NCBI GenBank assembly: GCA_963806185.1
Contig: CAWDXE010000001.1
Location: 512,001-576,000, forward strand
Length of the DNA: 64,000 bases
Direction: 5' to 3'
Origin: an uncultured candidate division Zixibacteria bacterium
Lineage (GTDB): Bacteria > Zixibacteria > MSB-5A5 > GN15 > FEB-12
The translations under genes and the position numbers were made by a program. Position 1 is the stretch's first letter. Every line of letters starts with the position of its first letter. The notes below the pieces were generated by a model. The model saw only the letters and a program-made list of their open reading frames with translations, was not told the origin of the DNA and did no database searches. This document shows positions 17,370-47,010 of this stretch, one piece after another.

Positions 17370-17381
17370 GCCTGTCTCGCT

Positions 17382-17399
17382 TCGTTATCTTTTTCACAA
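17382..17399 (-). promoter_or_regulatory. Candidate Rex operator in actA leader
   Basis: TTGTGAAAAAGATAACGA versus Rex consensus TTGTGAA-N4-TTCACAA. Confidence 0.45.
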
Positions 17400-17480
17400 G
17401 ATGAGGGTTGTCACTCGCTGTCCTTGCGAAGCGATCGACATCCCGGACTGCTCATTCCCTACTTTAATTCGCTCGGGGCG

Positions 17481-17509
17481 AAAATATAGTCGACGGCGGT
17501 ACCTGTCAA
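17481..17509 (-). promoter_or_regulatory. Sigma70-type promoter of act-cox operon
   Basis: TTGACA-17 nt-TATTTT on minus strand about 110 nt upstream of actA. Confidence 0.6.
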
Positions 17510-17629
17510 CGCTTTTTCTCCCGGTGGGCTAAAGAATAGACTTAAATATTCTACGATAATGGGGCGTAACGGTCATCTCTAAAACGGATCGCTTTAGTCC
17601 GATTTTAGCCGTGAAAGGCAAAATCATCG

Positions 17630-18490: not shown

Positions 18491-18953
18491 TTGTCCCTTC
18501 ACGTGTGGCGCGAGTATACAACATTTGGGCTGAGATCGCCACTCCGATCAAACGAACCGCACAACACCAGAGAGGAAGGGTGGTTCCAGCTTTTCTTTGG
18601 CGGAGTAACCGATCTGCGAGCCTTATGCGCACCCGACCGCACAGAAAGTGCCTCGGGTGTGACACGAAAATTGTGCACCGAGTCTGTTCACATCCGGTGG
18701 ATTTCATGTGGGTAATTGTCGACAGTTCGAAAACATGCTGTCATACAACGCCTTAACCAACCGATGATCGTAAAAGTGGAGTCACGAGTATGCTACTGAG
18801 GAATTTTTGTCCGCTAACCCATTTTAACATAATCAGATACGCGAACTGATTAGTTGGTCGGAAGGAAAGTGATCGCGCGGGCGAAAACGCACCGTATATT
18901 TCCCAAAAGTTAGGATATTGTGATTCAATAGCCTGCGAGTTTCCTGCGCAAAA

Positions 18954-22100: not shown

Positions 22101-22857
22101 GCTCGCTCGGCGAAATCTTCCTCGATATGCACCGCGAGGGCGCGGCGTTCCGTTCGCTCATGAACTGCTTCGCCATCGCCATCTCGCTCGGCCTGCAGCA
22201 CGGCGTGCCGCTCGAGGAGTATGTCGAGGCCTTCCTGTTCAGCCGCTTCGAGCCGAACGGGATCGTCGAGGGGAACAAGTCGATCAAGATGGCGACCTCG
22301 ATTATCGATTACATCTTCCGCGAGCTGGCGATCACCTATCTGGATCGCAACGATCTGGCGCACGTGTCGCACGACGACCTGCGCAACGACACGCTCGGCT
22401 CTCCGGCCGACGAATCGATGGACTTCGAAGAAGAAGAACCGGCGTCGCCGATTGTCACCGGTCAGATGACCGCGGCGACACGTCAGCAGGATGATATTCA
22501 CACCACCCATCTCGGTTTCGCGCCGACGCCCGAACGGTCACACGGGCAACGGAAAAGCCGGCCAACGGCGGGAACGGGAATGGACATTCACACGGAGGGA
22601 ATGGTCATGGTAAGTCGATGGAGTCTGCACCTGCAGCAGCAAAGAATCCTGCAGGCCAAACGGCGGTGCATGAGTATATCAGTGCCGGAACCGCCACCGC
22701 CGGCGAAGGAACCAACCGTCTCCAGCGAGAAATCCGAATCGCGCGGATGAGCGGGTACGAGGGGGACATGTGTCGGGAGTGCGGATCGTTTACGATGGTT
22801 CGCAACGGCACGTGTTTGAAGTGTGACACCTGCGGCTCCACGAGTGGGTGCAGTTAA
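19161..22857 (+). CDS. nrdJ: Class II (adenosylcobalamin-dependent) ribonucleotide reductase; several apparent sequencing frameshifts in 3' half
   Basis: [50 protein letters not shown]-terminal CRECG...[17 protein letters not shown] pieces 19161, 21070, 21329, 21614, 22618 are collinear. Confidence 0.93.
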
Positions 22858-24488: not shown

Positions 24489-24691
24489 GAACTACCTCAT
24501 TGAAGGTGGTGTAAGCCGATTCCAATATCCCGTGGGTTTCCTCCATGCCGCCGGCCATGTTCACATTTGCGCCGAATAAGTCGTAGTCGTAGCATACAGT
24601 GTCCAAAATGCGACGGGCGACTCGCTCGTTGCATCATTAGAAACATAGTAAGGATTGTCTACGGAAGCAAGTGATTGAATTGACAGCCCTG

Positions 24692-25172
24692 CCCCGGGAC
24701 CACAGGGGTCCCGGGCTACAAGAGAAGAGAAATACGCGCAGGCAAGTACGGTGGACTCTGAGATCCTGAACCTTTAAGAAAAGGTTCAGGATGACAATAT
24801 ACAGGAAGTAGTAGGGCAGCACCGATGCGAGTCTTCGAGCGGGTGCTGCCGTCTTCATGTTTCATTCATGGCAGCATCCGGCGCCAAGAGGCGCCATCGA
24901 TGCTGCCCTACAGAGTGAGCTTGCACCCTCGCTCTACGGGTTGGGGTGAGGGCATGGAAGGTAATGCGTCGGGTCACACGGCGATAAGAATCGCCGCAGG
25001 ACCTGACGCAACAGCCAACACGAGACGCACACCGGAGATGAAAAAAGAAACGGTCAGGCTCGGGAGCCTGACCGCACGTAAGCTGGATCCTACAGTCAGG
25101 GGCGCAAGGCCCCTGACCTACAAGACAAACCAACAAGACCTACAGGTCGAAACCACAGGGGTTTCGACCTCC
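24692..25172. repeat. Cluster of about nine REP-like palindromes
   Basis: Hairpins at 24692-24719, 24761-24795, 24811-24850, 24870-24911, 24911-24937, 24965-25012, 25051-25077, 25095-25121, 25144-25172; five start with GTAG on one strand. Confidence 0.8.
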
Positions 25173-25176
25173 AAAA

Positions 25177-25720
25177 TCACTTCGCGTCCATAAGTTGGCA
25201 TTCAAAGAACAAGGTCGAGTTCGGTGGTATCGCACCACCCATCCCCTGCTCACCGTACGCCAACTGCGGCGGGACGATCAACAGACCGCTTGCCGCCCAC
25301 CTTCATCCCGACCAGTCCTTCGTCCCAGCCGGCAATCACTTCCCGGTTACCCAGCACCAACGGATACGGCTTGCCGCGCGGAATTGAGGAATCAAGCGGG
25401 CTCCCCTTCTTCTGTCCGTCCACGTAGAGCCAGACGGTGTAATCCACAGCGACATGCTTCCCGGCGACAGCCTCCGCACCGGTCCCCACTTTTTCATCGA
25501 AGTACTTCAAACCAGACTTGGTCGTCACGTATTCCACTTTTTTCTCCGCAGCTTTGGCCGTATCGGCCCTGGTTGAATCGGCGATCTTGAACGGAGCCGG
25601 CTTGGTTGTGTCGGCGACTTTGGCCGGGGCTGTCTTGTCGGCGGCTGGTTTGTCGCCCGAAGCACAGGCATTCAGGCCGAGCGCCGCGAAAGCAAACAAA
25701 CAGACAATGGTCTTCCTCAT
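25177..25720 (-). CDS. FKBP-type peptidyl-prolyl isomerase lipoprotein (frameshift near 25285)
   Basis: Lipobox LNAC, TKSGLKY, VIAGWDEGLVGMKVGGKR; C-terminus PPQLAYG...IPPNSTLFFE in shifted frame. Confidence 0.92.
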
Positions 25721-27714: not shown

Positions 27715-30140
27715 CTATCGCAGGTGAGCGGCCGGCTGACTTCCAGCCGTGCGATGAGCCTTCGTCCGCGCGAAGGGTGATCTCGTCATGGCCAATCGTA
27801 AGGCTTCGTCAATCGTCGAGACCAAGTGCAGCTTCAGCCCCTCCTTCAATTCTGGGGGAAGCTCGACGAGGTCCTTTCGATTGCGCGAAGGAATGATGAT
27901 CTCGGTAATGCCCGCCCGTTTGGCCGCGAGCAATTTCTCGTTGAGTCCACCGATTGGCAGGACATCACCACCCAGAGTGATCTCGCCGGTCATGGCGATG
28001 TCGGTGCGAACGGCAATCTTGCTGACTGATGACAGCAGGGCCACCAACAGGGTAATACCGGCCGAGGGTCCGTCTTTCGGCACAGCGCCCTCCGGGATAT
28101 GCACGTGCAGTTCCAGCGAATCGAAGAAGTCTTCCTTCAAATTGAAACGCTCGGCGTGATTACGAATGTACGACAGGGCGGCCGTGCCCGATTCGCGCAT
28201 GACATCGCCCAGCGAACCGGTTAAGGTCAGGGTCGCTTTCCCCTTCATGGGCACAACCTCGACCGGCAATGCCTCTCCGCCCATTTCTGTCCAGGCGAGA
28301 CCGACAGCATAGCCGATGGTCGGTTCTGTCTTGAGATTGGTTTCGACGAATTTCCGTGGGGCCGAGTGTCCGATTTACCGCCGCAGGCGTGACGTTGAGG
28401 CTCTTGAACTTCTTCCCTCCCGCCAGATCGACTGCCGCCTTGCGAAGGATCGCGCTGAGCTGACGTTCCAGTTCGCGCACGCCGGCTTCGCGGGTGTAGT
28501 AGCGGATGATTTCAAAGAACGCCTTTTCGTCGAAATTGGTCACCACGTTCTCCAGACCAAGATCGTGGCGGAGTTTGGGCAGGAGGTACTCCTTGCCAAT
28601 GGCCGCCTTTTCGAAGTCGAGATAACCGGGCAGGCGGATGATCTCCATTCGGTCGCGAAGCGCCTCGGGAATGGCGCTGAGAGAATTGGCGGTCGTGATG
28701 AACAGAATATGCGACAGGTCGCTCTCGACTTCGAGATAATTATCGTAAAATGAATTGTTCTGCTCCGGATCGAGTACCTCGAGCAGAGCCGCCGCGGGGT
28801 CACCACGGAAGTCAGCGCCGATCTTGTCGATTTCGTCGAGGAGAAAGACCGGGTTAATCGAACCGGCCTTCTTCAGTGACTGAATGATTCGCCCCGGCAG
28901 CGCGCCTATGTAGGTACGGCGATGCCCGCGGATTTCGGCCTCGTCGTGAATGCCGCCGAGCGACATGCGCACGAACTTGCGTCCCATCGCACGAGCAACC
29001 GATCGTCCCACCGAAGTCTTCCCTACTCCGGGCGGGCCGACGAGACAGAGAATCGGACCTTTGACTTTTCCTGAGAGGCGAATGACGGCGAGGTGTTCGA
29101 GAATGCGCCGTTTGGCCTTCTCCAGACCATAATGGTCGCCGTCGAGAATGGTGCGAACCTCGTTGAAGTCAGTCCGATCCGTGGTGTGAACATTCCACGG
29201 TATGGCCAGGAGCCAGTCGACGTAGGAGCGAATGACCCCCGCTTCGGCTGAGTACGGATGCATCTTCGATAGTTTGCGAATCTCTTCCTCGGCTTTGGCG
29301 CGAACGCGATCGGGGTAGTCACCGCTCTCGAGCTTGCCGAAAAGGTCCTCAACTTCGGCGCCGGCATCGTCACCCTGCCCCAATTCATCCTTGATCGCCT
29401 TTAGCTGCTGCTGCAGATAGATCTCGCGTTGTGTGCGTGACATAGACTCGCGCACGCTACCGTCAATCTTCTGCTCGATTTTCAGAATCTCAATTTCCTC
29501 GCGCAGGATTTCGGCCAGAGCAAGGAACTGGTCCTTCGATGAATTGGTCTCGAGCAGTCGTTGCTTGACCTCAATGCGGTGTAACAAGTGAGCAGAGATG
29601 GTGTCGGCAGTGAGGTCGTGACTTTCGACCGAGGCCAGCGTGACCAGAATCTCATCGGGAATACGGCGATTGAGCCGGACATAGTCGGTGAACTGATCGG
29701 AAACGGTACGGGCAAGCGCGGTAGTCTCGCGATCGGTTGGCTCGTTGTCGCGGCGAATCAGTTGGAAGCGGGCCGTCATGAAACCGTTGGTCCGGCTCTG
29801 GCGTTTCCAGCCGGGCCCGGACAAGCCCCTCGACCAGCACCTTGAGGGTGCCGTTGGGCATCTTCATCACCTGCAATATTCGGGCAACCACGCCGATCGG
29901 AAACAGGTCGTTTTGTTTGGGATTATCGACGGCCGGCGATTTCTGGGCCACCAGCAGGATCTGCTTGCTGTTGACCATCGCCTCCTGCAGCGCCTTGACC
30001 GTAAACTTCCGGCCCACCAACAGCGGGTAGATCATGTGCGGGAAGATGACTATGTCGCGCAGCGGGATAACCGGCAGACTGGCCTGAATTTCAATATTTT
30101 CAGAATTGTACAGAACGTGCATTTCAACATCTCGTTTCAT
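27715..30140 (-). CDS. lon: ATP-dependent Lon protease (frameshifts near 29800 and 28360)
   Basis: LPVIPLRD N-domain, GPPGVGKTS, HRRTYIGALPG, PKDGPSAG, catalytic Lys (NEKLLAA); three collinear ORFs. Confidence 0.96.
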
Positions 30141-32897: not shown

Positions 32898-33155
32898 TTA
32901 CACTCCCCACACATGCTCATCCAGGGCGCGCTCCATGTCCGCCAGGGTCGGATACATGGATGGCTTCAGGTCGCGCGGCAGCATACGCTGATCAGCCAGA
33001 GTGTGACCGTTGATAATCAAAATAGGTGATTGAACCGGTTGTTCGGACTCGGTGATCCGGGCCAGTACTCCACGCTCTTCGACGTATCTCCGCACGAAAC
33101 GGCGCGCTAATTCCTGTCGCGGGTCCGTGCTGGAATATATGATACTGATATCGAT
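32898..33155 (-). CDS. Small hypothetical protein, possible thioredoxin-like fold lacking CxxC
   Basis: ISIIY...SPILIING...YPT pattern; strong SD GGGAGG 5 nt before ATC (TTG at 33179 is an alternative). Confidence 0.6.
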   Translation of the reverse strand: MDISIIYSSTDPRQELARRFVRRYVEERGVLARITESEQPVQSPILIINGHTLADQRMLPRDLKPSMYPTLADMERALDEHVWGV

Positions 33156-33393
33156 AACTACCTCCCTGTACGATTTCAATCTGTACCCAATTGGGGTTGC
33201 TATGCAACAATAACATCTCCCCCAATTTATTTATGTGAAGTTCAGCGATAATGTTCCATAAAATCGCCAAAACATCACGCGCCGGCGTCACCTGACACCG
33301 GTAGTACAGTAGATGAAGTCGGTATAGTAAGTTAAGAAATCCCCACGTACTGTGCGATGACTGTACGTCGGAAAGGTAGAACCGGCGTGCGGC

Positions 33394-34446
33394 TCAAGCA
33401 ACGATTAAATGGTGCGTGGCAAGAGAAACTACTTCACCGATAATCCGACTGGGCAATCCCTCGGCAGCCAACTCGGCGCCAAACGCCTCAGCCCGGTCGG
33501 GAGCTATGGCTATCAGCAGTCCTCCGGAGGTCTGGGGGTCAAACAGCAGATGTTCGAGACTGGCGGGCAAGGTCGCCACAAAGCGTATGTGGGGGGTTAC
33601 AAACTCTCGGTTGTCACTGGCACCGCCGGGAATCATGCCGGCGTCGGCAAGTTCAAGCGCCTCGGGGAAGACGGGCAAGGCATCGGCGTAAAACATGATG
33701 CTAACGCCGGATCCTGAAGCCATCTCAAACCCATGTCCCATCAACCCATAGCCGGTGACATCAGTGGCCGCGTGCGCGGTATATTTTAGCATCAGCTCGG
33801 ATGCAGTTCGATTGAGAGCGGCCATTTGGGCCATGACCAAGGCCGTCACTTCGGGGCTGGCCTTGTCCCGCTTGATTCCGGTTGTAATTATGCCCGTGCC
33901 AAGCGGTTTGGTGAGGAAAAGCCGGTCACCCACCTGGGCACCGGAATTGGTGATGATCCGCGAGGGGTCAATGAGCCCGGTCGCCGCCACACCGAATTTC
34001 AATTCCTTGTCTTTGATGGAGTGTCCGCCGACAACGACCGCTCCGGCCTCAGTCACCTTGTCGTTTCCACCTCGCAGAATCTCAGTCAGAACTTCCTGGG
34101 GCATACCCATTGGGAAGCCTACGATATTCAAGGCAGTAATTGGCCGTCCTCCCATCGCATAGATATCGGACAGGGCGTTGGCCGCGGCAATCTGGCCGAA
34201 CATGTACGGGTCGTCGACAATTGGTGGAAAGAAGTCGACCGTTTGCACCAATGCCAACTGGTCACTGATCCGAAACACGCCGGCGTCGTCAGCCTTGTTG
34301 AAGCCGACCAGCAGGTCGGGGTGACTGGCTTGCGGCAGGTCTTTGAGAGCGTCGGCCAAGAACTTTGGCCCTAGTTTTGACGCTCAACCCGCGCAGGAGA
34401 CCTCGGCCGTCAGCTTGATGGTTGTCAGTTTGCGTTTGTCGTCCAC
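33394..34446 (-). CDS. selD: Selenide, water dikinase, selenocysteine-containing (TGA at 34384-34386)
   Basis: KLT...SCAG-TGA-ASKLGP in frame with DDAGV, TVDFFPPIVDDP, ATDVTGYGL.GH, DPQTSGGLL. Confidence 0.95.
34347..34385 (-). promoter_or_regulatory. Bacterial SECIS element of selD
   Basis: Overlapping and just 3' of the UGA: GAGCGUC-aaaacuag-GGCCAA-AGUUC-UUGGCC-GACGCUC two-stem hairpin with G in apical loop. Confidence 0.8.
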
Positions 34447-34720: not shown

Positions 34721-36850
34721 ATGAGCCAGGAAAAGAAATCGAACCTCCGTATTGACGAGATTCTTCTCTGGGACGGTCTGGTTACTGAGACCCAGGTTCG
34801 GGAAGCCCTGCAGCACCAGAAACTTCACGGCGGTAAAATCGGGTCGCACCTCATGCGACAGGGTCATGTCAATGAGGCTGGGCTGGTGCAGGCACTGTCA
34901 CGCCAACTCGGCTGCGAGGGCGTGATCCTTACCGGACGTGAGATTCCAGCTGACGTCATTGCCCTTGTCCCACAACAGGTGGCGATCGCCAGAACAGTCA
35001 TCCCATTCAACTACGATCTGAATGCCAAGACTGTTGATATTGCCTGCGAGAACCCATCCGATCAGGATCTGCTTAACGAGCTATCGTTCATCCTGAAGGA
35101 TCGGACAATCAGATTATTCATTGCCGCTGAGATCGCCCTGAAGTCCGCGATCGCCCGGTACTACCTGGCTATGCCGGGGCGGGAAGCGGATCAAACCGGA
35201 GATATGGTTAAGGGGATATTCGCCTCTGACCCGACTTACCCGCAGGTGTCGGTTGGCACCAGGCGCGAGCCGGTATATCGGGGCACGATCCTCATGGTCA
35301 CCGACGATCAATTGGCTGATTTTCGTCTGCGCGAAGCAATGGAAATGGAACATTATCGCGTGGTGACGACGGAGTCAGCCGATGACGCCATCGACATCAT
35401 TTCCGGCCAGCAGTTTGACACGGTGTTTATTCGCGACAGCGTCCAGGGCGATTACATCGATTTGATCGATCGGTTGCGCAAAATTTCTCCGCGCACCAGA
35501 GTTCGTTATTACGACGCCGCCACCAGTCTGCTGACCGACAGCGAGGGAAGCACCACAATCGTTGATCTGCAGGTGCGCAATCTCGATCTCTTCACCTCTT
35601 TGTTGTCATCACGTGAGAAACTCGCCAGCAATCACAGTGGGACGGTTGGTCAGTATGTCGACAAGCTCTGCCGGCATATCGGGATTCCGGACAAAGACCG
35701 ATTGGTGATTACGACCGCCGCCTACCTGCATGACCTGGGTCGATTCTACTATGGTGACGCCACGCAGTTGAGCGACAGCCGCTCGCAGATCAATCTGACA
35801 ATTAAGCTGCTCGATTCGCTCAATTATTCGCCGCTCGTGATCGGTATTCTGCGCTCGATGTATATCAATCTGCGGGAGAAATACACCAAACGGCTGCCGA
35901 TTGAGACGCTCGGGGGCAATATCCTGACCGTCATCGATATCTTCTGCGAGCACATTCCGGTGGGCCAGAAGATGTCGCTGGATCGGTTCGAGGTCGTTCA
36001 GCGGAAATTTCATGACCTCAAGGGGAAGCTCTTTCTCTCCGAAGTGGTCGACGCCTTCCTGAACATGATTCAGAAGGACATTCTGTTGCCGCAGCCGAAC
36101 GAGAAGTTCAATCAGGTCATGGTGTATTGCGACGATGAAGAAATCATTGCCCCCGTGGAAAATCGCCTGCGAAGCGAGGGGTTCCGCACGATCAAGCAAT
36201 CCAAACTCGAGGCTTTCATCGACCTGTACAAGCGAAGCAAGCCGGACATCCTCGTGCTGATCGAACATGGCGGACCGTCAAAGGTAGTCAATTTGATTGA
36301 CGCGACCATCTCCGGCGGTATTGATCTCAAGCAGGTACCGACGTTTCTCCTGACCGACGTCTGGGTGGCTTCACAGTTGACCTCTATTTTTGACAAGGGA
36401 ATCGAGGACCTGATTCCGATCGACAACAACCTGAATCTGCTGATTGTGAAGATGAAGAAAGTCCGGTCCCGCATTGAAGCGGCCTCGAATATACCGATGG
36501 CGCCCAAGGACATTCCGGACGGCACCGGGGCGATGGGCAATCTGGTTGACATGAACCTGATTGATCTCCTCCAGGCACTGGGGCCGAGTCGCCGCACGGT
36601 GCGATTGACCGTCTCGTCCAACGCGAATGAGCTGATCATGTACCTCGATCGGGGCGATATCGTCTACGCCAAGCTGAACGAGCAGCAAGGTGCGGAAGCG
36701 GTTTATGAGGGGCTGAACTGGAAATCAGGTTTCTGGACGGTGCAGCCGGTTACTCGCGAACAACTCCCGCAGCCGAATAACGAATTCAGCAACGAATCGA
36801 TTCTGATGGAAGGGTGTCGACTGATCGACGAAAAGCAGAAGACCAGCTAG
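34721..36850 (+). CDS. Multidomain signalling protein: MshEN/GspE-N, receiver-like, HD, receiver-like, DUF4388
   Basis: RIDEILL..GLVT..QV.EAL..Q....KIG..L N-terminus; HS..V and AAYLHDLGR; C-terminal GNLVDMNLIDLLQ...SILMEG. Confidence 0.8.
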   Translation: MSQEKKSNLRIDEILLWDGLVTETQVREALQHQKLHGGKIGSHLMRQGHVNEAGLVQALSRQLGCEGVILTGREIPADVIALVPQQVAIARTVIPFNYDLNAKTVDIACENPSDQDLLNELSFILKDRTIRLFIAAEIALKSAIARYYLAMPGREADQTGDMVKGIFASDPTYPQVSVGTRREPVYRGTILMVTDDQLADFRLREAMEMEHYRVVTTESADDAIDIISGQQFDTVFIRDSVQGDYIDLIDRLRKISPRTRVRYYDAATSLLTDSEGSTTIVDLQVRNLDLFTSLLSSREKLASNHSGTVGQYVDKLCRHIGIPDKDRLVITTAAYLHDLGRFYYGDATQLSDSRSQINLTIKLLDSLNYSPLVIGILRSMYINLREKYTKRLPIETLGGNILTVIDIFCEHIPVGQKMSLDRFEVVQRKFHDLKGKLFLSEVVDAFLNMIQKDILLPQPNEKFNQVMVYCDDEEIIAPVENRLRSEGFRTIKQSKLEAFIDLYKRSKPDILVLIEHGGPSKVVNLIDATISGGIDLKQVPTFLLTDVWVASQLTSIFDKGIEDLIPIDNNLNLLIVKMKKVRSRIEAASNIPMAPKDIPDGTGAMGNLVDMNLIDLLQALGPSRRTVRLTVSSNANELIMYLDRGDIVYAKLNEQQGAEAVYEGLNWKSGFWTVQPVTREQLPQPNNEFSNESILMEGCRLIDEKQKTS

Positions 36851-37347
36851 GCGGAATTCCTGTCGGTGACAGGGACAGCACTGCTTACAGACTCAATCCA
36901 CCGCTCGATCTGCCGCAAGGCCGGTTCAATCGCCTCGATGATCGGAGGCGTCATCTGTTCGGACAGCGTATTGACATCGAGGGCTTCCACGGCCAGGACA
37001 GTCACCTTCTCCGGCATCTTCGCGCCAAGCGCCCGCCCCAGGGCAAGAGCGGTAGGTAAGCTGATCTGGTGTGAGCCGGTCAGCGTATTCGACGGCGCCA
37101 GCTCCCCCGCATCGAAGAGATGCAGAGTACCGGGACGAGCATGGCCTGTCACGATAGCATCGACAATCAGGACACGAGGCCGATCACACAACAAGTCCAG
37201 GAGCGCAAAGCCGGCTGTGGCGGCGCTGATAATCTCAACGCCGCCGATATGTTTCGCACGGGCCGAGAGGCGGTCGGCCACGGTCGGCCCGAACGCATCA
37301 TCACAATGCACTTCATTTCCGAGGCAGAGTACCAGCGGAGCGCGCAC
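36847..37347 (-). CDS. Hydrogenase maturation protease
   Basis: LCLGNEVHCDDAFG, LIVDAI, GSHQ; follows large subunit that has a C-terminal extension. Confidence 0.92.
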   Translation of the reverse strand: MRAPLVLCLGNEVHCDDAFGPTVADRLSARAKHIGGVEIISAATAGFALLDLLCDRPRVLIVDAIVTGHARPGTLHLFDAGELAPSNTLTGSHQISLPTALALGRALGAKMPEKVTVLAVEALDVNTLSEQMTPPIIEAIEPALRQIERWIESVSSAVPVTDRNSA

Positions 37348-37349
37348 GG

Positions 37350-38828
37350 CTATCTCCTCACGATATCGATCACCTCGCACGTAGCGGCGTCGTGCACGAT
37401 CAGTTCCAGCGGCATCTCGCCGGGAAGCGTGTGCGTGGCACAGCCAAAGCAGGGGTCATAGGCGCGGAACGCCATCTCGATCTTGTTGAGGGTGCCATTG
37501 GTGATCGGCTTGCCCTTCTTGATCAGCCCCTGCGCCGCCCGCTTGATAGACATTGAGATCGGGGCATTGTTATTGGTGGTGCCAACTATCAAGTTGGCTT
37601 CGGTGACGATGCCATTCTTATCGGTCTTGTAATGGTGGGTCAGCGTTCCGCGCGGGGCCTCGACAATACCCACCCCCTCGCCGACAATTCCCGTCGGAAT
37701 GGTATGGATGTTGTCGGACGTAATCTCGTCGTCCTGGGCCATCTGTGCGACGGCCTCACTCGCATACACCAGTTCGACAATGCGCGCCCAGTGAGTGGCA
37801 AGAGTCGAATGGACGGGTGTCTTGCCGGACCGATCCTTGGTCAAGGTCTCATAAAAACGCTCGTATTCGGCCTGGGCCAGCGGGGTTGCCATGCCGTCCG
37901 AAACATTGAGGCGCGACAGCGGCGTCGCTTTGTACACGCCCGAGTCCATGCCGTCGACAAACCCCTTCCACCCCACCTTTTTCAGATAGGGGTATTTGAG
38001 GTAGCTATACGGCTCGACGTGTTCGGCGACGTAATCGAGATAGTCCTTTGGCTCGTACTGCGCATGCCTCGTACCGTCGGGGCCGGTTACGCGCACCTGG
38101 CCGTCGTAGAAGTTCACCTTGCCGTTCTTATCCACCAGACCCATGTTATATGTCTGGTGCGCGTAGGCATCGGAAAGAATGAGATCAACATACTGCTTGT
38201 TGGCCAGGACGATGTCGTTGAGCACCTGCACGGCGAATTTGGAGAATTCGACCATATCCTTGCCGATCTGAATGATTTCCTGCTGTTCTTCCTTTGTCAC
38301 ACGCTTGGACATGCCGCCGGGAATGGCCGTCACCGGGTGCACTTTCTTGCCGCCGATGATTTCAATGACGCGCTGCCCGCGTGCTCGCTGGGCGATCACT
38401 TTCTTGCCGGCATCCAGACCTACCTTTGCTATGACCCCAAGAATGTTCCGTTCGGCCGGCGGAGCGTCGGGGCCGCACACAAAATCCGGACCACCGAGGG
38501 CAAAGAAATGGGTCGTGTGGTCGCCGGAGTAAAAGGCACAGTACATCAGTTCGCGAAGTTTGAAGGCAGCCGATGGAATCGTGACGCCATAGACTGCGTC
38601 AGCCGCTTTGGCCGCCGCCAGATGGTGGGCATCGGGACAGACGCCGCAAATGCGGGTAGTGATGCGCGCTAATTCCTCGACCGGTCTTCCCTGCGCGAAT
38701 TTCTCAAAACCACGCAGTTCAGGCACCTGGAAGTAGCAGTTCACCAACTCGCCGTCATCGCCGACAAAGAGGTGAATCTTGCCGTGCCCTTCAAGACGGG
38801 TAATCGGATCGATCAATATCTGTTTCAT
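37350..38828 (-). CDS. mvhA: [NiFe]-hydrogenase large subunit, group 3c (Mvh)
   Basis: ITRLEGH, L1 RICGVCPDAH, EAPRGTL.HHY, L2 AYDPCFGCATH + extension; mvhDG/hdr context. Confidence 0.94.
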   Translation of the reverse strand: MKQILIDPITRLEGHGKIHLFVGDDGELVNCYFQVPELRGFEKFAQGRPVEELARITTRICGVCPDAHHLAAAKAADAVYGVTIPSAAFKLRELMYCAFYSGDHTTHFFALGGPDFVCGPDAPPAERNILGVIAKVGLDAGKKVIAQRARGQRVIEIIGGKKVHPVTAIPGGMSKRVTKEEQQEIIQIGKDMVEFSKFAVQVLNDIVLANKQYVDLILSDAYAHQTYNMGLVDKNGKVNFYDGQVRVTGPDGTRHAQYEPKDYLDYVAEHVEPYSYLKYPYLKKVGWKGFVDGMDSGVYKATPLSRLNVSDGMATPLAQAEYERFYETLTKDRSGKTPVHSTLATHWARIVELVYASEAVAQMAQDDEITSDNIHTIPTGIVGEGVGIVEAPRGTLTHHYKTDKNGIVTEANLIVGTTNNNAPISMSIKRAAQGLIKKGKPITNGTLNKIEMAFRAYDPCFGCATHTLPGEMPLELIVHDAATCEVIDIVRR

Positions 38829-39796
38829 GATTGCACCCTCCGCAGAAGCGACTCGGGCAGGCTGAAACGGTAGAAGGTACCGATCGGATCGGCGATACTA
38901 TCAATGATACGATCAATCTCGGCCGGGTCTGATGAGTCAATTACACTGGCTATGGCGGAGGCCATTTTGGCGCCCTGATCGCGGACATTGAGCGGTATAC
39001 CGTAACACCCCCGGCAAGGCATGCCGGCGTTGACGCATTTGGCTCCGCAGCCGGAGCGAGTCGCCGGGCCGAGGCAGATGACTCCCTGCTCCAGCAAACA
39101 CAGTTTGGGATCGGCATGAACCTCAAACGGTCGGACGAATTTCTTGATCTTCTTGATATTCCGATCCCTCGTGCACTCGTCGCAGCAGCATTTTTCGCTG
39201 GCCCCCAGCACGGTTCCCTTTGGCGGGAGCGGCTTGCCGTTCTGCAGTATATCAATGACAGCCGCCACCACTGCGGCAATCTGATCGGACTGCGGCGGGC
39301 AACCGGGAATGATGTAATCGACATCAACTACCTGCCCCAGCGTACGTACGGTGTTCCACAGTTCCGGGATATGCAAAGTCCCTTCGGGCACAGTCACCTC
39401 GGGCTGCGGCAGAATCCCCTCCGGATTCACGGTCGAAGGTGACTCTTTGTAGGCATAGTTCATGATGCCCTGTTTGGTATAGAGATTGGCCAGCCCGGGG
39501 ATGCATCCCTCGGAGGCACAACTGCCAAAGGCACACAGGACGACGGACTTTTGCCGTAGAAGACGCGCGATTTCGTAGTTTTCGTCACTGCGAATAGCGC
39601 CGTTGAAAAGCGTCAGCGTGATTGACTTGTCCTCCATGGCCCGCACGTCGTCGTACTTGAAATCGGTCGCACAGGGCCAGAAGACAATATCGAAGAAATT
39701 GGCGACATCCAGAATCTTCTCTTCTATATCGAGAATGGCGATATCACACCCGCCACATGAGGCGGCCCAGTAAATAGCCAGTTTTGGTTTTGCCAT
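38825..39796 (-). CDS. mvhG: [NiFe]-hydrogenase small subunit
   Basis: SCGGC, GSCA..GCIPGLAN, PGCPP, CDEC, CLLEQGVICLGPATRSGC, CRGCYG. Confidence 0.94.
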   Translation of the reverse strand: MAKPKLAIYWAASCGGCDIAILDIEEKILDVANFFDIVFWPCATDFKYDDVRAMEDKSITLTLFNGAIRSDENYEIARLLRQKSVVLCAFGSCASEGCIPGLANLYTKQGIMNYAYKESPSTVNPEGILPQPEVTVPEGTLHIPELWNTVRTLGQVVDVDYIIPGCPPQSDQIAAVVAAVIDILQNGKPLPPKGTVLGASEKCCCDECTRDRNIKKIKKFVRPFEVHADPKLCLLEQGVICLGPATRSGCGAKCVNAGMPCRGCYGIPLNVRDQGAKMASAIASVIDSSDPAEIDRIIDSIADPIGTFYRFSLPESLLRRVQS

Positions 39797-39799
39797 AGG

Positions 39800-40261
39800 T
39801 TACTCCTTCCCCGCCGCCACTGCCGGCTGCTCGGATTTCTCCGGAACGAATGCCCAGTCGTTGAGTTTGAAGGGGCCAAGTTGCCTGATCTCTTCGGTGA
39901 ATTCAGTGATGACCTGCTGGAAACGGGCACCCTCCGAGGCGGACACCCATTCCAGTCGCAGCCGGCGCGGGTCGATACCCATCCCATTGAGAATCTTCTT
40001 GGTGATGGGGATTCGCCGCAGGCATTTGTAATTTCCTTCGACATAATGACAGTCGCCGGGATGGCAGCCACAGACTATCACGCCGTCGGCGCCGCGACGA
40101 AACGAATCAAGAACAAATGTCGGATCGACTCGCCCCGAGCACATGACGCGGATCGCCATTACGTTCGGGGGGTACTTCATGCGGGCCGTACCGGCGAGGT
40201 CGGCCCCGGTGTAGCTGCACCAGTTGCAGAGAAAGCCGATGATGCGGGGTTCGAAACTCAT
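39800..40261 (-). CDS. mvhD: Hydrogenase/Hdr [2Fe-2S] adaptor subunit
   Basis: FLCNWCSYTGADLAG, VMCSGRV, GCHPGDCHY, WVSASEG. Confidence 0.96.
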   Translation of the reverse strand: MSFEPRIIGFLCNWCSYTGADLAGTARMKYPPNVMAIRVMCSGRVDPTFVLDSFRRGADGVIVCGCHPGDCHYVEGNYKCLRRIPITKKILNGMGIDPRRLRLEWVSASEGARFQQVITEFTEEIRQLGPFKLNDWAFVPEKSEQPAVAAGKE

Positions 40262-42015
40262 GACAGCATCCCCTCGATTTGAGCGTATATCTGATCGTCG
40301 GTAAATTGGCGGGCAGAAATCGCGCCCGCAGGACAAGCTGCCACGCATGTCCCACAGGCCTTGCACAAGGCGGAATTCACCGTACTCACCTTCTTTTCGG
40401 CATTGTAATCGATGGCCGAATACGGACACATGTCGTTGCAGATACGACAACCGGAACAGTATTCTTCCTGCACCACCGCATAGGCGGCATCCATGAGGAT
40501 TTCGCCCTGGGCAAACAGCTTGAGCACCTGAGCGGCCGCCGCGCCGCCCTGGGCGACGGTATCCGGAATGTCCTTCGCCCCCTGGCAGGCGCCGGCCAAA
40601 AAGACTCCGTCAGTCGTAGTCGATACGGGAGCCAGTTTCGGGTGCGCCTCGATAAACCAACCGTCGGCGCCGGTCGAGATATTGAACTTGCGGCCGGTCT
40701 CTTTGGCGTCGGGCCGCGCTTCGAGCGCCGTGCAGAGGATGACCATGTCCACCGGGATTTCGCGGAATTTGCCGATCAACGTATCTTCGCAGCAGACCAG
40801 GAGGTGTCCTTCGTCGCCGCGTCGGTTACCGGAAGGAATCACCTCGGCTACTTTGCCGCGGATGACGTTGACGTCCTCATCAAGGATCCTCTGGTAGAAC
40901 TCCTCGTACCCTTTACCGAAGGAACGCACATCGATGTAGAACTGGTATACCTCGGCACTGGTCTTTTCCTTAACCAGATGCGAGAACTTGAAGGCATACA
41001 TGCAGCAGACGCGGCTGCAGTACTTGTGATGGTTCTCATCGCGGCTGCCTACGCAGTGGACAATGGCGATGGCGCGTGGCTCTTCGCCGTTCTCCAGCAT
41101 GATCTTGCCGCCGGTGCTACCGGCCGCATTATTCATAACCTCGAATTCTTCGGCCGTTATGACATTGGGCAGGCGACCGTAGCCGAACTGCTTCATCGGC
41201 GTCGGATCAAACGATTCGAAGCCGGTGGCCATGATGACCGCACCGACGTCAAATTCCTCGACCACATCCGAGGTGTGGAAATCGATCGCTTCCTTCGGGC
41301 AGACTTTGGCACAGACCATGCATCCGCCGGTCTTGAAATGAATGCAGTTCTCGCGGTAGATCCGCGGCACATTCGGCACGGCCTGGCGGAAGGGAAGAGA
41401 GATGGCCGCATTCGGGCTGAGGCTCAGTTCGCGGTGATCGACCTCCTTAAGGTCGAGCGATTCCATCTGGATATAGCCGGTCGGACACAGTTTGGCGCAG
41501 GCACCACACAGGATACAGTTGGTGGATTCGGCATCAAAGGCGGTCGAGACGTCGCGCTCGGCGCCGCGATTGATAAAAGACAGTGCGTGGGCGCCAACGA
41601 CCTCATCGCACACGCGGACACACAATCCGCAGAGAATACAGGTATAGGTTCCCGTACCCCAGCGGGGTTCGGTGATCCCCAACTGCTCCGCCAGTCTTTG
41701 CAGTACCGGAACAGGCGAGCAGTTAGCCATGAGCATTTCCAGGTTCGTGCGTCGAGCATTAATGACGCGGGCGGTGTCAGTGAAGATTTGCAGCCCGTCC
41801 CAGGCGGGATAATTGCAGGCGGTCACAATCTTGTTCCACCCGTTGCCGGCGCGGGCTTCCACCGCGCAAATGCGACAGGCGGCATACGGCGTCATATGGG
41901 GATAGTAGCAGAGAGTCGGGATTTCAATGCCAAGTTGCTTGGCCGCCTCGAGTATGTACGAGCCTTCCTCGACTTCCACCTTCTGTCCATCTATCGTTAT
42001 TGAAACAAGGGGCAT
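40258..42015 (-). CDS. hdrA: Fusion: NuoG/HydA-type N-terminal Fe-S module + C-terminal half of HdrA
   Basis: IPTLC...CRIC...TAC [2Fe-2S]; CILCGLCVRVC, CILCGACAKLCP; then PFRQAVP, VGAVIMATG, CVGSRD, YCSRVCCMYAFK, HPKLAPV, AGACQGAKDIPD, C-terminal 2x[4Fe-4S]. Confidence 0.9.
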   Translation of the reverse strand: MPLVSITIDGQKVEVEEGSYILEAAKQLGIEIPTLCYYPHMTPYAACRICAVEARAGNGWNKIVTACNYPAWDGLQIFTDTARVINARRTNLEMLMANCSPVPVLQRLAEQLGITEPRWGTGTYTCILCGLCVRVCDEVVGAHALSFINRGAERDVSTAFDAESTNCILCGACAKLCPTGYIQMESLDLKEVDHRELSLSPNAAISLPFRQAVPNVPRIYRENCIHFKTGGCMVCAKVCPKEAIDFHTSDVVEEFDVGAVIMATGFESFDPTPMKQFGYGRLPNVITAEEFEVMNNAAGSTGGKIMLENGEEPRAIAIVHCVGSRDENHHKYCSRVCCMYAFKFSHLVKEKTSAEVYQFYIDVRSFGKGYEEFYQRILDEDVNVIRGKVAEVIPSGNRRGDEGHLLVCCEDTLIGKFREIPVDMVILCTALEARPDAKETGRKFNISTGADGWFIEAHPKLAPVSTTTDGVFLAGACQGAKDIPDTVAQGGAAAAQVLKLFAQGEILMDAAYAVVQEEYCSGCRICNDMCPYSAIDYNAEKKVSTVNSALCKACGTCVAACPAGAISARQFTDDQIYAQIEGMLS

Positions 42016-42029
42016 ATGGTCAACACCTC

Positions 42030-44046
42030 CTACACCGTCACGGCTTGTTGTTGGGTCGGCCGAGCCGGGTTCCAGTGTTCTTTGGCAATCTCCTGGATGC
42101 GGTCGCCCTCGCCTCGCTTGACCCGCTTGATGCTGTCGTAGCGGCAGATCTGATAGCAGGCGCCGCATTGAATGCACTTGTCCTGTATGATCACGTGGAG
42201 CTTCTTGGGTTCGCCCACGATCGCTTCGGTGGGACACGCCTTCTTGCAGGCATGACAGCCGTTGCAGGTTTCATTGATCGCATGCGAGACCAGTTCTTTG
42301 CAGACGCCGGCCGGGCAGCGTTTGTCAACCACGTGGGCCATGTACTCATGGCGGAAGTATCGCAGGGTCGACAGGACCGGATTGGGCGCCGAACCGCCCA
42401 ATTGGCAGAGGCTGGTGTCGATGATGACCTGCGAGAGTTGCTCGAGATACTCGATATCCTCCGGGACGCCATGGCCGTCACAGATCTTCTTCAATATGTT
42501 GTGCATGACCACCAGACCCTCGCGGCAGGGTACACACTTCCCGCAGCTTTCCTCGGTGAGAAAGCCGAGGAAGTACTTGGCGACATCGACCATGCACGAG
42601 TCGGAATCCATCACGATCATGCCGCCCGATCCCATCATCGAACCGGCTTTGGTCAATTCGTCAAAATCGATAGGCAGGTCGAGCAGGCAGGGGGCCTCCT
42701 CGTCTTCCTTGATGTCGCCGTGGGCGACCATGCTCTCACGAATGGCCTGCTCGCTGGTTTCCACGATGAGCGTGCCACCCGACGGACCGCCGGTCTGTAC
42801 CGCGCGGAACCGTTTCCGACCGGGAACACCGCCGCCGATATCGTAAAGAATCTCGCGCAGGGTGATCCCCATCGGGACTTCGACCAGTCCCGTGTTATTG
42901 ATCTTGCCGGTGAGGGCAAACACCTTTGTTCCCTTGGAACCGGCAGTGCCGATCTTGGAGAACCATTCCCAGCCCTGGTTAATGATAATAGGAACGTTCG
43001 CCCAGGTTTCGACATTGTTAAGGCAGGTCGGCTTGTCATAGAGTCCGGCTTCAACCGTATGGATATACTTCGCCCGCGGTTCGCCCATCTTTCCTTCGAG
43101 CGAGGCCATGAGCGCGGTTGATTCACCACAGACGAAGGCGCCGCCACCCCGTGAGATTTCGATGTCGAAATCAAAACCGGTGCCGAGAATGTTTTTGCCG
43201 AGCAAACCAATCTCGCGCGCCCGATCCAGGGCGACGATGAGATTCGTCACGGCGAGCGGATACTCGTTACGAACATACACAAAGCCATCGTTGGAGCCGA
43301 TGGCAAACGCGCCGATGATCATCCCCTCGATGACCGAATGCGGATTCCCCTCGAGCAGGGAACGGTTCATGAAGGCGCCCGGGTCTCCCTCGTCCGCGTT
43401 GCAGACGATGTACTTCGGTGAACCCTGCGCGCGACGGCAGTGGTCCCACTTGCGACCGGTCGGAAAGCCGCCGCCGCCTCGCCCGCGAAGTCCGGACTTC
43501 TTGATTTCGTCAATGATGCGATCGGAGTTCATTGTGGTGAGTGCTTTCACCACCGCCGTGTACCCGTCGTGTAAGATGTAGTCGTTAATGGAGGCAGGGT
43601 CGATCAGGCCATTATTACCGAAGAGAAGGCGCATCTGTTTCTTGTAGAACGGGATATCCCTTTGGTGAACGATTGTCTCGCCGCTTTGCGGGTCGCGATA
43701 AAGCAGGCGGTTGACCAGGCGACCGCCCTTGACGGTCTGTTCCATGATCAACTTGACGTCACCAACCTTGACCTTCTGGTAGAAGATCTCCTGTGGCTGA
43801 ATCAGGACGAGCGGGCCGCGTTCACAGAAACCATGACAGCCGGTAGTTTCGAGTCCGACGGTGTCTCCCGAATCGGTCTTCGGCGATGGCCTTGCGAAAG
43901 GCTTCGGCCACCGGGGCACAACCGCAGGCAAGACAGCCGGTGCCGGTGCACAGGGTGATGACCATCTTATTGGGGTCGTATTCTTGCTTAAGTCTGGCCC
44001 GCAGGGAGGCAAGCTCTTTCGGGGATTGAAGTTTGTTGACCTTCAT
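42030..44046 (-). CDS. nuoF: NuoF/HydB-type FMN/NAD(H)-binding subunit, long form (frameshift near 43868)
   Basis: N-terminal [62 protein letters not shown]-terminal 2x[4Fe-4S]. Confidence 0.92.
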
Positions 44047-44562
44047 ACATTCTCCTCGCGGTCGGGCTCGGACTTCTTCCCTTTCAAATCGGCCAGCATC
44101 TTGTCGACTTTCGACACGGTCATATTGCCGTAATAGACTTCGTTGGCGGTCACCAGCGGTCCCAGCGCACAGGCGCCGAGACAGTTGACGCTCTCCAGAG
44201 AATACTGCATATCGGCCGTGGTCTCGCCGGACTTGATTTTGAGTTCACGCTCGAGCTTGTCGACAATGACGATCGACTGGCGCACATGGCAGGCCGTGCC
44301 GGTGCAGACGCAGATGTGATTTTTCCCCTTGGGGGTCAGGCTGAAAGTCTTGTAGAAGGTCGCCACGCCGTAGATCTGAGCGACCGGGAGCTTCATGCGT
44401 TTAGAGACCGCGAGCAAAGCGGCTTCCGGCAGATAACGATAGTGTTTTTGTATATCCTGCAGGATCATGATCAGCGCCGACGGCTTGGCGCCGTATTCGT
44501 TGACGATCCGCGTAATTACTTCATTGACGTCGTAAGTCAGGTGGCGCTGTAGTGGTACTCAT
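44043..44562 (-). CDS. nuoE: NuoE/HydC-type [2Fe-2S] subunit (frameshift near 44540)
   Basis: VATFY, VCTGTACHV, VNCLGACALGP; SD GGAGG and ATGA overlap with hdrA N-half stop. Confidence 0.92.
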
Positions 44563-45543
44563 ACGTCAACCTCCTCCATATCCGGTGGAACATTTTCGGG
44601 CATCGGCTGAGCGCCCGTGAGCACGGTCAGATCGTGTCGCGGCCCGAGGATGTACTTGTCGCGCACGTCGAGCAGTCGACCTTCGCGATACACGCGACCG
44701 CCCAGGAGCATGCGACGGTCGCGCGGGAACGGACGGCTCGGGCAGGCCTCGTAGCAGGAGCCGCAGCTGTTGCAGAGCGTGGTATCGACATACCGGGCCT
44801 TACTGCGCACCTGCGACTTTGAAATTGCCGATATACCCGCTCACACTCTCAATCTCCGCCCAGGTCATCAGCTTGATATTCGGATGCTTGCCGACCGATA
44901 CCATCTTCGGGGTCAGAATGCAGGCGGCGCAATCGAGAGTCGGGAAGGTTTTGTCGAACTTCGACATGTGGCCGCCGATGGTCGAATCGCGCTCGACCAG
45001 AATAACCTTATAGCCGGCGTCGGCGATCTGCAGGGCCGCCTCGATTCCGGCGATACCTCCGCCGACAATCATCACCTGCTTGGTGATCGGAACGCGGCGC
45101 ATTTCCAGCGGTTCGTGGAACCGGACCCGCGCTACGGCGGCCCTCACCAGCGCCTGTGCCTTGCGGGTCGCACCGACGGCATCGGTGGTGACCCAGCTCA
45201 CCTGCTCGCGGATATTGGCCATCTCAAAGAAGTACCGATTGACGCCGCCGGTCTCGACCGCCTTGCGGAAGGTGCTCTCGTGCATCAGCGGACTGCATGC
45301 GGCGACGACGACCCGATTCAGATTGAATTCCTTGATATCCTTCTGAATCAATTCCTGCCCCGGGTCGGAACACATGAAGCGGTAGTGTCGGGCAATGACG
45401 ACGTTGGGCTGCGCCGCAGCCGTCTCCACCACTTTGGCTACGTCAACCATCTTTGCGATGTTCGAGCCGCAGTGACAGACATATACGCCGATCCGGATAT
45501 CGTCGGCGTTCTTCGGCCGAGATCCATTACCATCGTTTGTCAT
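44559..45543 (-). CDS. hdrA: N-terminal half of heterodisulfide reductase subunit A (frameshift near 44814)
   Basis: RIGVYVCHCGSNI, MCSDPGQ, AACSP, ANIREQVSWV, GGGIAG, DKTFPTLDCAACIL, RYVD..LCNSCGSCYEACP then unrelated tail and stop. Confidence 0.9.
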
Positions 45544-46422
45544 ACGTTCACCTCCACGGCCCTGGCAGTCAGCTTCTCCGCGGGGATCATCAATTTGTCC
45601 ATGCCCATCTTTCCGGGGATCAATGCCCAGGGCCACGCCCAGCAGGTGGCTGAAATACACCACCGGAATATTGAAAGTCTTACCGGAGCGGGCGTTGATC
45701 TTGTTCTGATAGGCCTCAAGATTCATCTGGCAAAGCGGGCAGGCCGTGGCGATGATATCAGCGTTGTTGTCGGAGGCAACCTCAAGCAGCCGCAGATTGA
45801 GATCAAGCGCGATTTCTTCCTGAGTGGTCATCAGCATACCGCCGCAACAGCGCACCTTGGCCGGGAAATAGGTGACCGTTGCACCGAGCGCCGTAAACAG
45901 CTTGTCCATCGTCACCGGATCGTCAACGTCATCAAAGTGCCCGTGGGGTCGGACAATTTGACAGCCGTAGTAGGGAGCCACTCTGAGTCCGGTGAGTGGA
46001 TTCTTCACCTTGGCCTTTATGGCGTCGAGACCAATGTCATTAGTGAGAATATCGAGCGGATGCTTGACCTCGACGGTAGTCGTATAGGAGAGGTCAGCCG
46101 CGGCGAGCGCTTCGTTGACCATTGCTCGCTCCTTGGGATCCCAGTCAACGCTTCGATTGGCCTTGCGCAGAATCGTGTAGCATGAACTACAGGGGGCGCA
46201 GATCTCCATTCCCATCTTCTGAGCTATCGCCAGATTGCGAGCCGAGATCGCAGTCGCCACGATCTTTTTCACCGACATGTACATCGTCGCTCCGCAGCAA
46301 TTCCAGTCTTCGATTTCGGTCAATCCGATTTCGAGCACGCGAAACACTTCGCGAATCGATTTGTCATAGGGCGAAGCCGAGTGTTCCAGGCTGCAGCCGG
46401 GGTAGTAGGCATACTGTTTCAT
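45540..46422 (-). CDS. hdrB: Heterodisulfide reductase subunit B (frameshift near 45616)
   Basis: YYPGCS, WNCCGA, PCSSC, YYGCQ, CCGG, ACPLCQMNLE; true end MGMDKLMIP...VEVNV-stop overlaps hdrA ATG. Confidence 0.93.
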
Positions 46423-47010
46423 GCTTCATCCCCCAATTTGTTGGCACGATCGATGATCGCGCGTACTTCGCTTATGCGTTTGATCTTCTTAGGCAGAAGC
46501 CCGAGCCGGCCGCGGCGAATCATTGACAGCCCGAACCCGGCGCTGGCGAACAGCTTCGTCCACTTCGATCTCAAAAGGTAGCGAATACCCAGTCCCAGTT
46601 CGAAGTTGCGGCCGTACGTATACACCTGATCAACAAACGCATTCGACAAGTACATGGACCGGAAATTGCTGCGGGTATACTTTCTTGTCCATCGCGACGC
46701 GTTTTAGTGCGTACATCGTGTCGGTGACCTTGATACCGACCGGACATCGCACCGTACACGAATAACACGAAGCACACAGCCAGATCGTCCGGCTCCGCAG
46801 AATATCCTCCAGTTGGCCGGCACGAAAGAGCGCGATCACTTGCCGGGGTGTGATATCCATCGCGTGTGAGACCGGACAGGTCCCCGTACAGGTGCCGCAC
46901 TGCAGGCACCGCTTTATCTTCTGACCGTCGGGAAACGTAGTGACCTGTTCCCAGAACGCTTCTCTAAGGTCGGCCTCGGTCTTGGGAAGAGGTTCCAAAG
47001 CACCCCGCAT
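46419..47010 (-). CDS. hdrC: Heterodisulfide reductase subunit C (frameshift near 46648)
   Basis: CLQCGTCTGTCP and WLCASCYSCTVRCP; SD GGAGG. Confidence 0.92.

Follow-up and report, generated by a model that had tools for sequence, protein, structure and literature searches.

The 64,000-nucleotide (nt) stretch of DNA examined here (the window) comes from the genome of a Zixibacteria bacterium (G000, 82% complete) and carries, on its minus strand (47010-36847), an operon with the order hdrC-hdrB-hdrA(N)-nuoE-nuoF-[FeS arm::hdrA(C)]-mvhD-mvhG-mvhA-maturation protease, in which hdrA is divided into two genes and a NuoE/NuoF-type module is nested between the halves. The N-half (44559-45543, like all operon features below on the minus strand) encodes the N-terminal FeS domain, the first half of the flavin adenine dinucleotide (FAD)/thioredoxin reductase domain, motif 1 of the inserted ferredoxin (CxxCxxCxxxCP; CNSCGSCYEACP, 44739-44774), which is its final HdrA-like element, and a tail. 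The C-half is covalently joined behind an Fe-S arm of the BfuA type in one intact open reading frame (ORF) of 585 amino acids (aa) (40258-42015), and has motif 2 of the inserted ferredoxin near its start (C-x7-CxxCxxxCP, 41296-41346). The arm (about 185 aa, 41464-42015; Fer2_4 and Fer4_Nqo3 in Pfam) holds a [2Fe-2S] cluster, A1, and two [4Fe-4S] clusters, A2 and A4, and has neither the His-ligated A3 cluster nor an H-cluster domain. The nested genes are nuoE/bfuC (44043-44562), encoding a thioredoxin-like [2Fe-2S] protein (2Fe-2S_thioredx, E 7e-50), and nuoF/bfuB of the HydB type (42030-44046), encoding an N-terminal thioredoxin-like [2Fe-2S] domain, a flavin mononucleotide (FMN)/NADH domain, SLBB, cluster B1, the B2/Zn site and a C-terminal 2x[4Fe-4S] domain.

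A preliminary description of this DNA had placed the cut in HdrA directly after CNSCGSCYEACP (44774-44739) and the remainder of HdrA behind an Fe-S domain (42015-40258), and the sequence bears out both statements, while other details need amending. Of the novel tail of roughly 60 aa, a 59-aa tail is present (44559-44738, tail codons 44738-44562), but only the initial ~22 residues (PxxRxxxLGxxVxxEG) are conserved and the remainder is variable, with tail lengths of 19-66 aa among 60 homologues. The C-half does restart within the fusion, but not at AISLP; it begins about 10 residues earlier, at HRELSLSPN, a worn remnant of the HdrA EFNxGL loop that precedes PQAVP and that is complete in Dehalococcoidia homologues. 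A link between the short C-half loop and the hairpin tail is suggestive only, as just two related long-loop cases occur among 60. ATGA overlaps with Shine-Dalgarno-like sites are found at the hdrB/hdrA-N, hdrA-N/nuoE, nuoE/nuoF and fusion/mvhD junctions, but nuoF and the fusion are separated by a 14-nt gap. A promoter and terminator scan gave results at chance level.

Judged by their sequences, the two halves constitute one HdrA, because rare single-chain homologues join N-half, arm and C-half. In these natural proteins (P0145, 870 aa, and P0157, 883 aa, with two full-length records each), the N-half, a short linker, the arm and the C-half follow one another in one frame, with 64% and 51% identity to the window's halves, and three further single-chain proteins (P0209, P0211 and P0322) are without the N-terminal domain. 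The halves are complementary: the NCBIfam HdrA2 model is covered at positions 1-254 by the N-half, represented by its orthologue in the nearest intact relative (L063), and at 261-640 by the window's C-half, with no overlap, and all intact relatives have two ORFs for HdrA, versus one chain in canonical type I HdrA. The Cys ligands of all six HdrA clusters are invariant or almost so across both halves, the four of motif 1 in 48/48 N-halves and the four of motif 2 (C224, C232, C235, C239) in all 120 best database matches listed for the fusion. The equivalents of the bifurcating-FAD residues E356 and K409, E292 and K343 (40987-41142, alignment to 5ODC_A), are kept in 76/76 and 75/76 homologues, respectively, and this pair was proposed to mark bifurcating HdrA (PMC12054007, available in part). 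HdrB (45540-46422) has two CCG domains (Pfam CCG x2) with complete motifs, and its 10 non-cubane Cys are conserved in 55/55 homologues. When N-halves and C-halves of one set of 48 loci, in which L063 stands in for the window copy, were placed in separate trees, both trees recovered the same four supported groups. A tblastn search found no other hdrA in the 82% complete source genome.

The placement of the split inside the inserted ferredoxin also holds: motifs 1 and 2 lie on different chains, the FAD domain is divided between the chains and all ligands are invariant. Each cluster of a 2[4Fe-4S] domain is ligated by three Cys of one motif plus a single Cys of the other. The eight A2/A4 Cys of the arm itself are invariant, which leaves motif 1 on the other chain as the only partner for motif 2; from this we infer that both insert clusters would assemble across two polypeptides. 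AlphaFold2 gave the single-chain P0145 a predicted local distance difference test (pLDDT) score of 56.6 (below 50 in the insert) and a predicted template modelling (pTM) score of 0.33; the fusion alone was predicted with a pLDDT of 75.8 and a pTM of 0.44, poorly at 188-215 and 456-484, which is compatible with an absent partner and is not evidence for one.

The nested genes had been described as a NuoEFG'-type module, and NuoE-, NuoF- and NuoG-like genes do lie between the halves, but their type is BfuCBA and not complex I NuoEFG. The best solved relatives of the NuoF protein are WorB (9MQX_B) and HydB (7T2R_B), with complex I NuoF far behind, and its Pfam domains comprise the FMN domain, SLBB, NADH_4Fe-4S, the C-terminal 2x[4Fe-4S] domain and an N-terminal thioredoxin domain with the B5 Cys. 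The B2/Zn ligands C438, H525, C531 and C536 are kept in 68/68 homologues, position 476 is T, C or S in 64/68 (Cys in the window), and the four Cys of BfuC are kept in 66/66. All 12 Cys of the arm (A1, A2 and A4) are invariant in the 120 listed homologues, and the A3 His-Cys motif was found in 0/79 arms. The closest structural match of the arm in Foldseek is WorA (9MQX_A; root mean square deviation 1.7 over 182 columns). Arms of this type receive their electrons at A4 (PMC12318220; PMC9304861, both in part), from where, in the WorA enzyme, they are split between NAD+ and ferredoxin (PMC12318220), and the HdrA C-half is attached immediately after the A4 motif. By these features the module is of the bifurcating BfuABC type, predicted to handle NADH and ferredoxin. 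As side observations, a ~24-aa insert follows the SLBB GGPSGG motif of nuoF (42700-42790), has equal length in 38/68 homologues and might contact HdrA, and a related BfuA arm in another genome (G008, L148:4234-5538) has a glycine-cleavage H-protein domain as its fusion partner, and its gene precedes bfuC, a thioredoxin-like gene and bfuB.

The module could instead be an NAD(H) port only, as proposed for HdrL/type III HdrA, through which the low-potential electrons would reduce NAD+ and would not be bifurcated again towards ferredoxin. In a relative with an hdrCBA-mvhDGA operon (L146), the same HdrA ferredoxin domain indeed holds an inserted GltD-type NAD(P)H domain, which is the design of the published type III HdrA/HdrL, and electrons at the HdrA exit would be reducing enough for NAD+ directly. 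Against this, BfuB retains all the features that non-bifurcating homologues lack according to Schut et al. (the B2 ligands with their His, B3/B4 and B5; PMC9304861, in part), and WorABCSL requires both NAD+ and ferredoxin even though its donor could reduce either (PMC12318220, in part). The fusion has no Fer4_20 or second Pyr_redox domain in Pfam, unlike L146. We regard a pure NAD(H) port as distinctly improbable.

The nested layout is not peculiar to the window. The full fusion is present in 5/40 sampled relatives, in the same order and with intact N-halves of 322-324 aa where the contig reaches (2/5 are cut by contig ends). One genome of the phylum, G027, carries an intact Mvh-Hdr alongside this layout. 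In the 285 genomes of the phylum set, 58 match fusion residues 1-270 (E<=1e-50) and 47, G000 included, match the whole fusion junction (E<=1e-120). The closest named database matches of the fusion belong to Ca. Zixiibacteriota, and all 120 listed homologues are 60-82% identical over residues 1-270, nearly all with a length of 583-588 aa. Across phyla, the order was scored in the best 80 of 417 confirmed species-genome matches, on which all counts out of 80 rest. The nested order is seen in 59 loci from many phyla, of which 43 have the compact order N-half-nuoE-nuoF-fusion and 16 have additional genes between N-half and nuoE (15 found by script, plus L140, re-sorted since its nuoF has a gap); three place the N-half immediately upstream of the fusion, and 18 show it incompletely, mostly at contig ends. 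Downstream of the fusion, mvhDGA follows in 70/80 loci (scored on mvhG). The homologues include ones from KSB1, Acidobacteriota, Eisenbacteria, Calditrichaeota, Planctomycetota, Dehalococcoidia and Bacteroidota/Ignavibacteria, and one match (P0222) is assigned to an archaeon.

These counts bear on the possibility that the layout is a misassembly, or the locus a decaying one. Compared with L063, the window copy has one frame change in each of five genes: hdrC (46419-47010; 2x[4Fe-4S], Fer4_8/Fer4_17), whose two frames are 66% and 56% identical to the intact HdrC, at ~46648; hdrB at ~45615, close to the C-terminus; hdrA-N at ~44813; nuoE at ~44530; and nuoF at ~43867. The gene order of the preliminary description is thus confirmed, but it had missed the five frameshifts, so that the N-half is not one ORF in the assembly. 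Housekeeping genes are broken in a similar way: rpoC of G000 lies in a 538-aa frame, versus 1386-1391 aa in 2/3 relatives, and 12 of 38 relative's ORFs from the rpo/ribosomal region (tuf counted twice and a few spurious ORFs included) change frame in G000, with 23 changes in 29.6 kb (0.78 per kb). Because rpoC and other housekeeping genes are broken similarly, the frameshifts in the operon are probably assembly errors. Within the window lon (28163-30140) and the class II ribonucleotide reductase gene nrdJ (19161-22747) are in pieces as well, and with frameshifts so frequent across the G000 assembly, other 'split gene' findings there need checking against relatives. Two sequencing runs, neither of them RNA, contain 5-6% of the words, and no run contains more than 6%. 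The five frameshifts are what speaks for misassembly or decay; on the other side stand the similar rate of frameshifts in essential rpoC and ribosomal genes and the dozens of independent assemblies in which the ORFs are intact and identically ordered. Intact order in five sampled relatives and in 59 of the 80 loci excludes misassembly of the layout, which refutes the architectural part of this explanation, and we consider the explanation as a whole very improbable.

The wider locus set also bears on how the split arose. In the 16 loci with additional genes, these encode a kinase, a [FeFe]-hydrogenase-like sensor and a PHP protein, between N-half and nuoE. Such a kinase/[FeFe] sensor/PHP cassette is of the kind that precedes hydCBA operons. 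As sensory cassette genes sit inside the gap, insertion of a whole operon is suggested, and the split was likely left behind when a bfuCBA operon inserted into hdrA and became fused in frame to its back half. In an approximately unbiased (AU) test, run after the trees were seen, on unrooted trees and with a small unsplit sample, the 40 split C-halves were rejected as a clade versus 8 unsplit ones (p 1e-4). Two loci (L094, L095) have Bfu genes of the window type together with HdrA halves that group with intact Zixibacteria HdrA, and three (L109, L112, L114) show the opposite pattern. As the split forms are not one clade and the Bfu and HdrA groupings disagree, the Bfu cassette seems to have been gained, lost or swapped between HdrA lineages at this site. 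Other rearrangements of these genes were also met: in one locus (L149) HdrA-N is fused to NuoE, and G018 has rearranged HdrA genes (L147:1625-8626), namely a permuted double unit of 954 aa, an N-terminal part of 203 aa as a gene of its own, and a C-part that is joined to MvhD.

Behind the fusion lie an intact mvhD, encoding the [2Fe-2S] adaptor (39800-40261; FlpD, E 4e-56), mvhG for the hydrogenase small subunit (38825-39796; best model VhuG, under its cut-off), mvhA for a [NiFe] hydrogenase large subunit of the Mvh/Vhu type with Cys rather than selenocysteine (37350-38828; best model VhuA, under its cut-off) and a hydrogenase maturation protease gene (36847-37380; HycI, E 6e-14). In methanogen Hdr and BamE, low-potential electrons exit through the inserted ferredoxin, whereas input is through the C-terminal ferredoxin with MvhD/BamF (PMC13518236; bioRxiv 10.64898/2026.04.10.717634; PMC9012536, all in part). 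The preliminary description had wired this exit directly into an NAD(H) module; the insert is HdrA's low-potential exit according to the first two of these sources, but the module is of the Bfu type rather than one for NAD(H) alone. Since mvhDGA lies behind the fusion, the circuit is simplest with the hydrogenase at the input side. On balance, we lean towards the reading that the two HdrA chains likely reassemble and that their ferredoxin exit would pass low-potential electrons to the fused arm, which would place two bifurcations in series. H2 would be oxidised at MvhAG, and its electrons would reach the HdrA FAD via the C-terminal ferredoxin and MvhD. The high-potential branch would run through HdrC to the non-cubane clusters of HdrB and reduce a disulfide, and the low-potential branch would run through the inserted ferredoxin, both of whose clusters would have Cys from both chains, to A4-A2-A1 and on to BfuBC, which would split the electrons between NAD+ and ferredoxin (Fd). 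The net reaction would be 4 H2 + 2 RSSR + NAD+ + 2 Fd(ox) -> 4 RSH + NADH + 2 Fd(red).

The series reaction was computed, from potentials in the cited papers and from two intermediate cases of -200 and -450 mV, to be exergonic by 61-125 kJ at 1 atm H2. As half of the low-branch output is NADH, its equilibrium H2 is 27-72-fold lower than that of Mvh-Hdr reducing ferredoxin alone, and lies at about 0.4-225 Pa, depending on the disulfide. Such pressures are within reach of syntrophic partners. The equilibrium is therefore also a point in favour of the same complex working mainly in reverse: BfuBC would confurcate NADH and reduced ferredoxin, a thiol pair would contribute further electrons at the HdrA FAD, and all of them would leave as H2 in fermentation or syntrophy. 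All steps are reversible in characterised relatives (PMC9304861, in part), and thiols could be supplied by a two-Cys DsrC that G000 encodes beside DsrM/DsrK-like genes, with no dsrA match. Evolution of H2 could, on the other hand, be left to a separate sulfhydrogenase-type operon in G000, the respiratory chain of the host (alternative complex III-like and caa3 oxidase genes) would pull the opposite way, and DsrC is not enriched in carriers of the fusion. Reverse use as the main mode is thus unlikely, though credible. The respiratory genes form a minus-strand cluster in the window (5430-18502), with multiheme cytochrome c, molybdopterin/FeS subunit and NrfD genes of the alternative complex III-like type plus caa3-type cytochrome oxidase genes, and show that the host also encodes aerobic respiration. 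The DsrC locus (G000:C4:49461-51790, L151) encodes DsrC with two C-terminal Cys, then DsrM-like and DsrK/HmcF-like proteins. With the queries used, Rnf, [FeFe] hydrogenase and dsrA were not found in the 82% complete G000.

Several observations weigh against two bifurcations in series. Besides the five frameshifts in the window copy, three of the 80 loci keep the split and the arm, with no nuoEF between the halves and with long-branched arms, and in at least one of these three genomes no full BfuB was found, only a short NuoF-type match; since these loci keep split and arm, coupling to BfuBC is not obligatory. DsrC, encoded in 172/285 phylum genomes, is present in 32/47 carriers (68%) versus 140/238 non-carriers (59%) and is missing from several near-complete carriers; as a general HdrB partner it was rejected for this lack of enrichment. 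Finally, the A4 motif of the arm (its motif b) aligns with its spacer to HdrA motif 1 of 5ODC/7BKB, so that another pairing of the Cys is possible. This alignment, together with the arm retained in loci without nuoEF, speaks for the fusion as a tether or a rewiring, in which the last motif of the arm would pair with HdrA motif 2 in cis, or the arm would feed the input side like BamI, with Bfu as an alternative donor beside the hydrogenase; the homologous BamI of class II benzoyl-CoA reductase (BCRII) does feed the C-terminal ferredoxin and BamF (bioRxiv 10.64898/2026.04.10.717634, in part). Pairing in cis would, however, orphan arm motif a and motif 1 of the N-half, both of which are invariant, MvhG and MvhD, normally at the input side, are encoded directly behind the fusion, and the insert, where arm and HdrA are joined, is distant in sequence from the C-terminal ferredoxin. 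A tether or rewiring is therefore improbable in our estimate.

A fuller version of the serial reading can be put forward tentatively, a little short of an even call: the complex would be a widespread H2-oxidising enzyme in which HdrA- and HydBC-type bifurcation are serial, in the order opposite to that of benzoyl-CoA reductase and joined by a ferredoxin domain whose two clusters form only once both polypeptides come together, the Bfu genes would be an exchangeable plug-in at the HdrA exit, swapped between hdrA lineages, and ferredoxin would be reduced at 30-70 times lower H2 than by Mvh-Hdr alone. If this is true, cells could make strong reductant from very little H2. To our knowledge, two distinct bifurcation modules are chained in a single enzyme only, where they serve to attain extreme reducing power; here, in reversed order, they would serve to harvest dilute H2. 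The lineages concerned (Zixibacteria, KSB1, Acidobacteriota, Planctomycetota, Ignavibacteria and Dehalococcoidia) are common in anoxic sediments, where the role of Mvh-Hdr is unexplained. An exit hard-wired to an NAD+/ferredoxin reporter would also offer a handle on the route that low-potential electrons take out of HdrA and on the identity of the disulfide reduced by HdrB in bacteria.

Further features were noted around the operon. A selD-like gene lies near its end, and the small ORF after it has no match in Pfam (33394-34359 and 32898-33179, both minus strand), and no in-frame TGA was seen in the window's mvhA, mvhD or hdrA. In several relatives the maturation protease gene is followed by one for a small Cys-rich protein with repeated CxxCxGxG motifs (L144:14477-14845, L108:14143-14463, L111:8723-9040). 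Elsewhere in the window (~24690-25180), intergenic short palindromic elements resemble repetitive extragenic palindromic sequences and recur dozens of times in G000 as partial copies.

The layout is easily missed, because pipelines label the fusion simply as HdrA or as a 4Fe-4S protein. A literature search found no description of the nested split-HdrA/Bfu layout, with the Appel et al. 2021 review of HdrA(BC) and the full 1558-cluster table of PMC9304861, either of which could contain it, outside its reach; the available parts of PMC3903129, bioRxiv 2024.09.26.615249, PMC6895022, PMC5736913, PMC7325909 and PMC11237513 make no mention of it. BCRII already offers a case of Bfu and HdrA coupled in series, with the order reversed, and HdrL one of insertion into the same ferredoxin.

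With MvhADG-HdrABC of methanogens (5ODC, 8RVU, 7BKB; PMC13518236, in part), the operon shares the hdrCBA-mvhDGA gene set, the five HdrA domains, K409/E356 and the HdrB CCG Cys, whereas the methanogen HdrA is a single chain whose insert docks ferredoxin or polyferredoxin, in a complex that reduces CoM-S-S-CoB and free ferredoxin, and here HdrA is two chains in a bacterial host, with the insert fused to a BfuA arm. BCRII, Bam[(BC)2DEFGHI]2 or 'Bam-Bfu' (bioRxiv 10.64898/2026.04.10.717634; PMC9304861, both in part), shares the serial HydBC/Bfu and HdrA modules and a three-cluster arm with no A3. The precedent of BamE with BamGHI, cited in the preliminary description, therefore stands for HdrA with Bfu-type partners, but its wiring is the reverse: in BCRII, electrons come from Bfu (BamI to the C-terminal ferredoxin/BamF) and the insert feeds BamBC, whereas here they would come from the hydrogenase and the Bfu module is joined to HdrA at the insert. 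BamE moreover is a single doubled HdrA, in contrast to the one split unit here, and no BamBC tungsten module is encoded at the locus, to which this comparison was confined (BamB elsewhere in the genome was not searched for). Wor-Bfu, WorABCSL of Acetomicrobium mobile (9MQX; PMC12318220, in part), provides the best sequence match of BfuB, the best structural match of the arm and low-potential entry at A4, but its donor is the separate WorS nanowire, bound by a C-terminal helix of WorA, while here the donor would be half of HdrA's own ferredoxin, covalently attached. In type III HdrA/HdrL (PMC12054007, PMC9012536, both in part), the same domain is interrupted (by GltD or an NfnB-like unit) to attach an NAD(P)H-handling unit; there, a single chain holds one FAD/NAD(P)H domain after the PQAVP loop, whereas here a three-gene FMN module lies in front of that loop and divides the gene. 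NiFe-HydABCSL (type 3 Bfu; 7T2R) likewise combines a [NiFe] hydrogenase with BfuABC, and all its B2 ligands, the C476 equivalent included, are present in the window's BfuB; in that enzyme the hydrogenase feeds A3 directly, whereas here A3 is absent and HdrA would stand between hydrogenase and Bfu.

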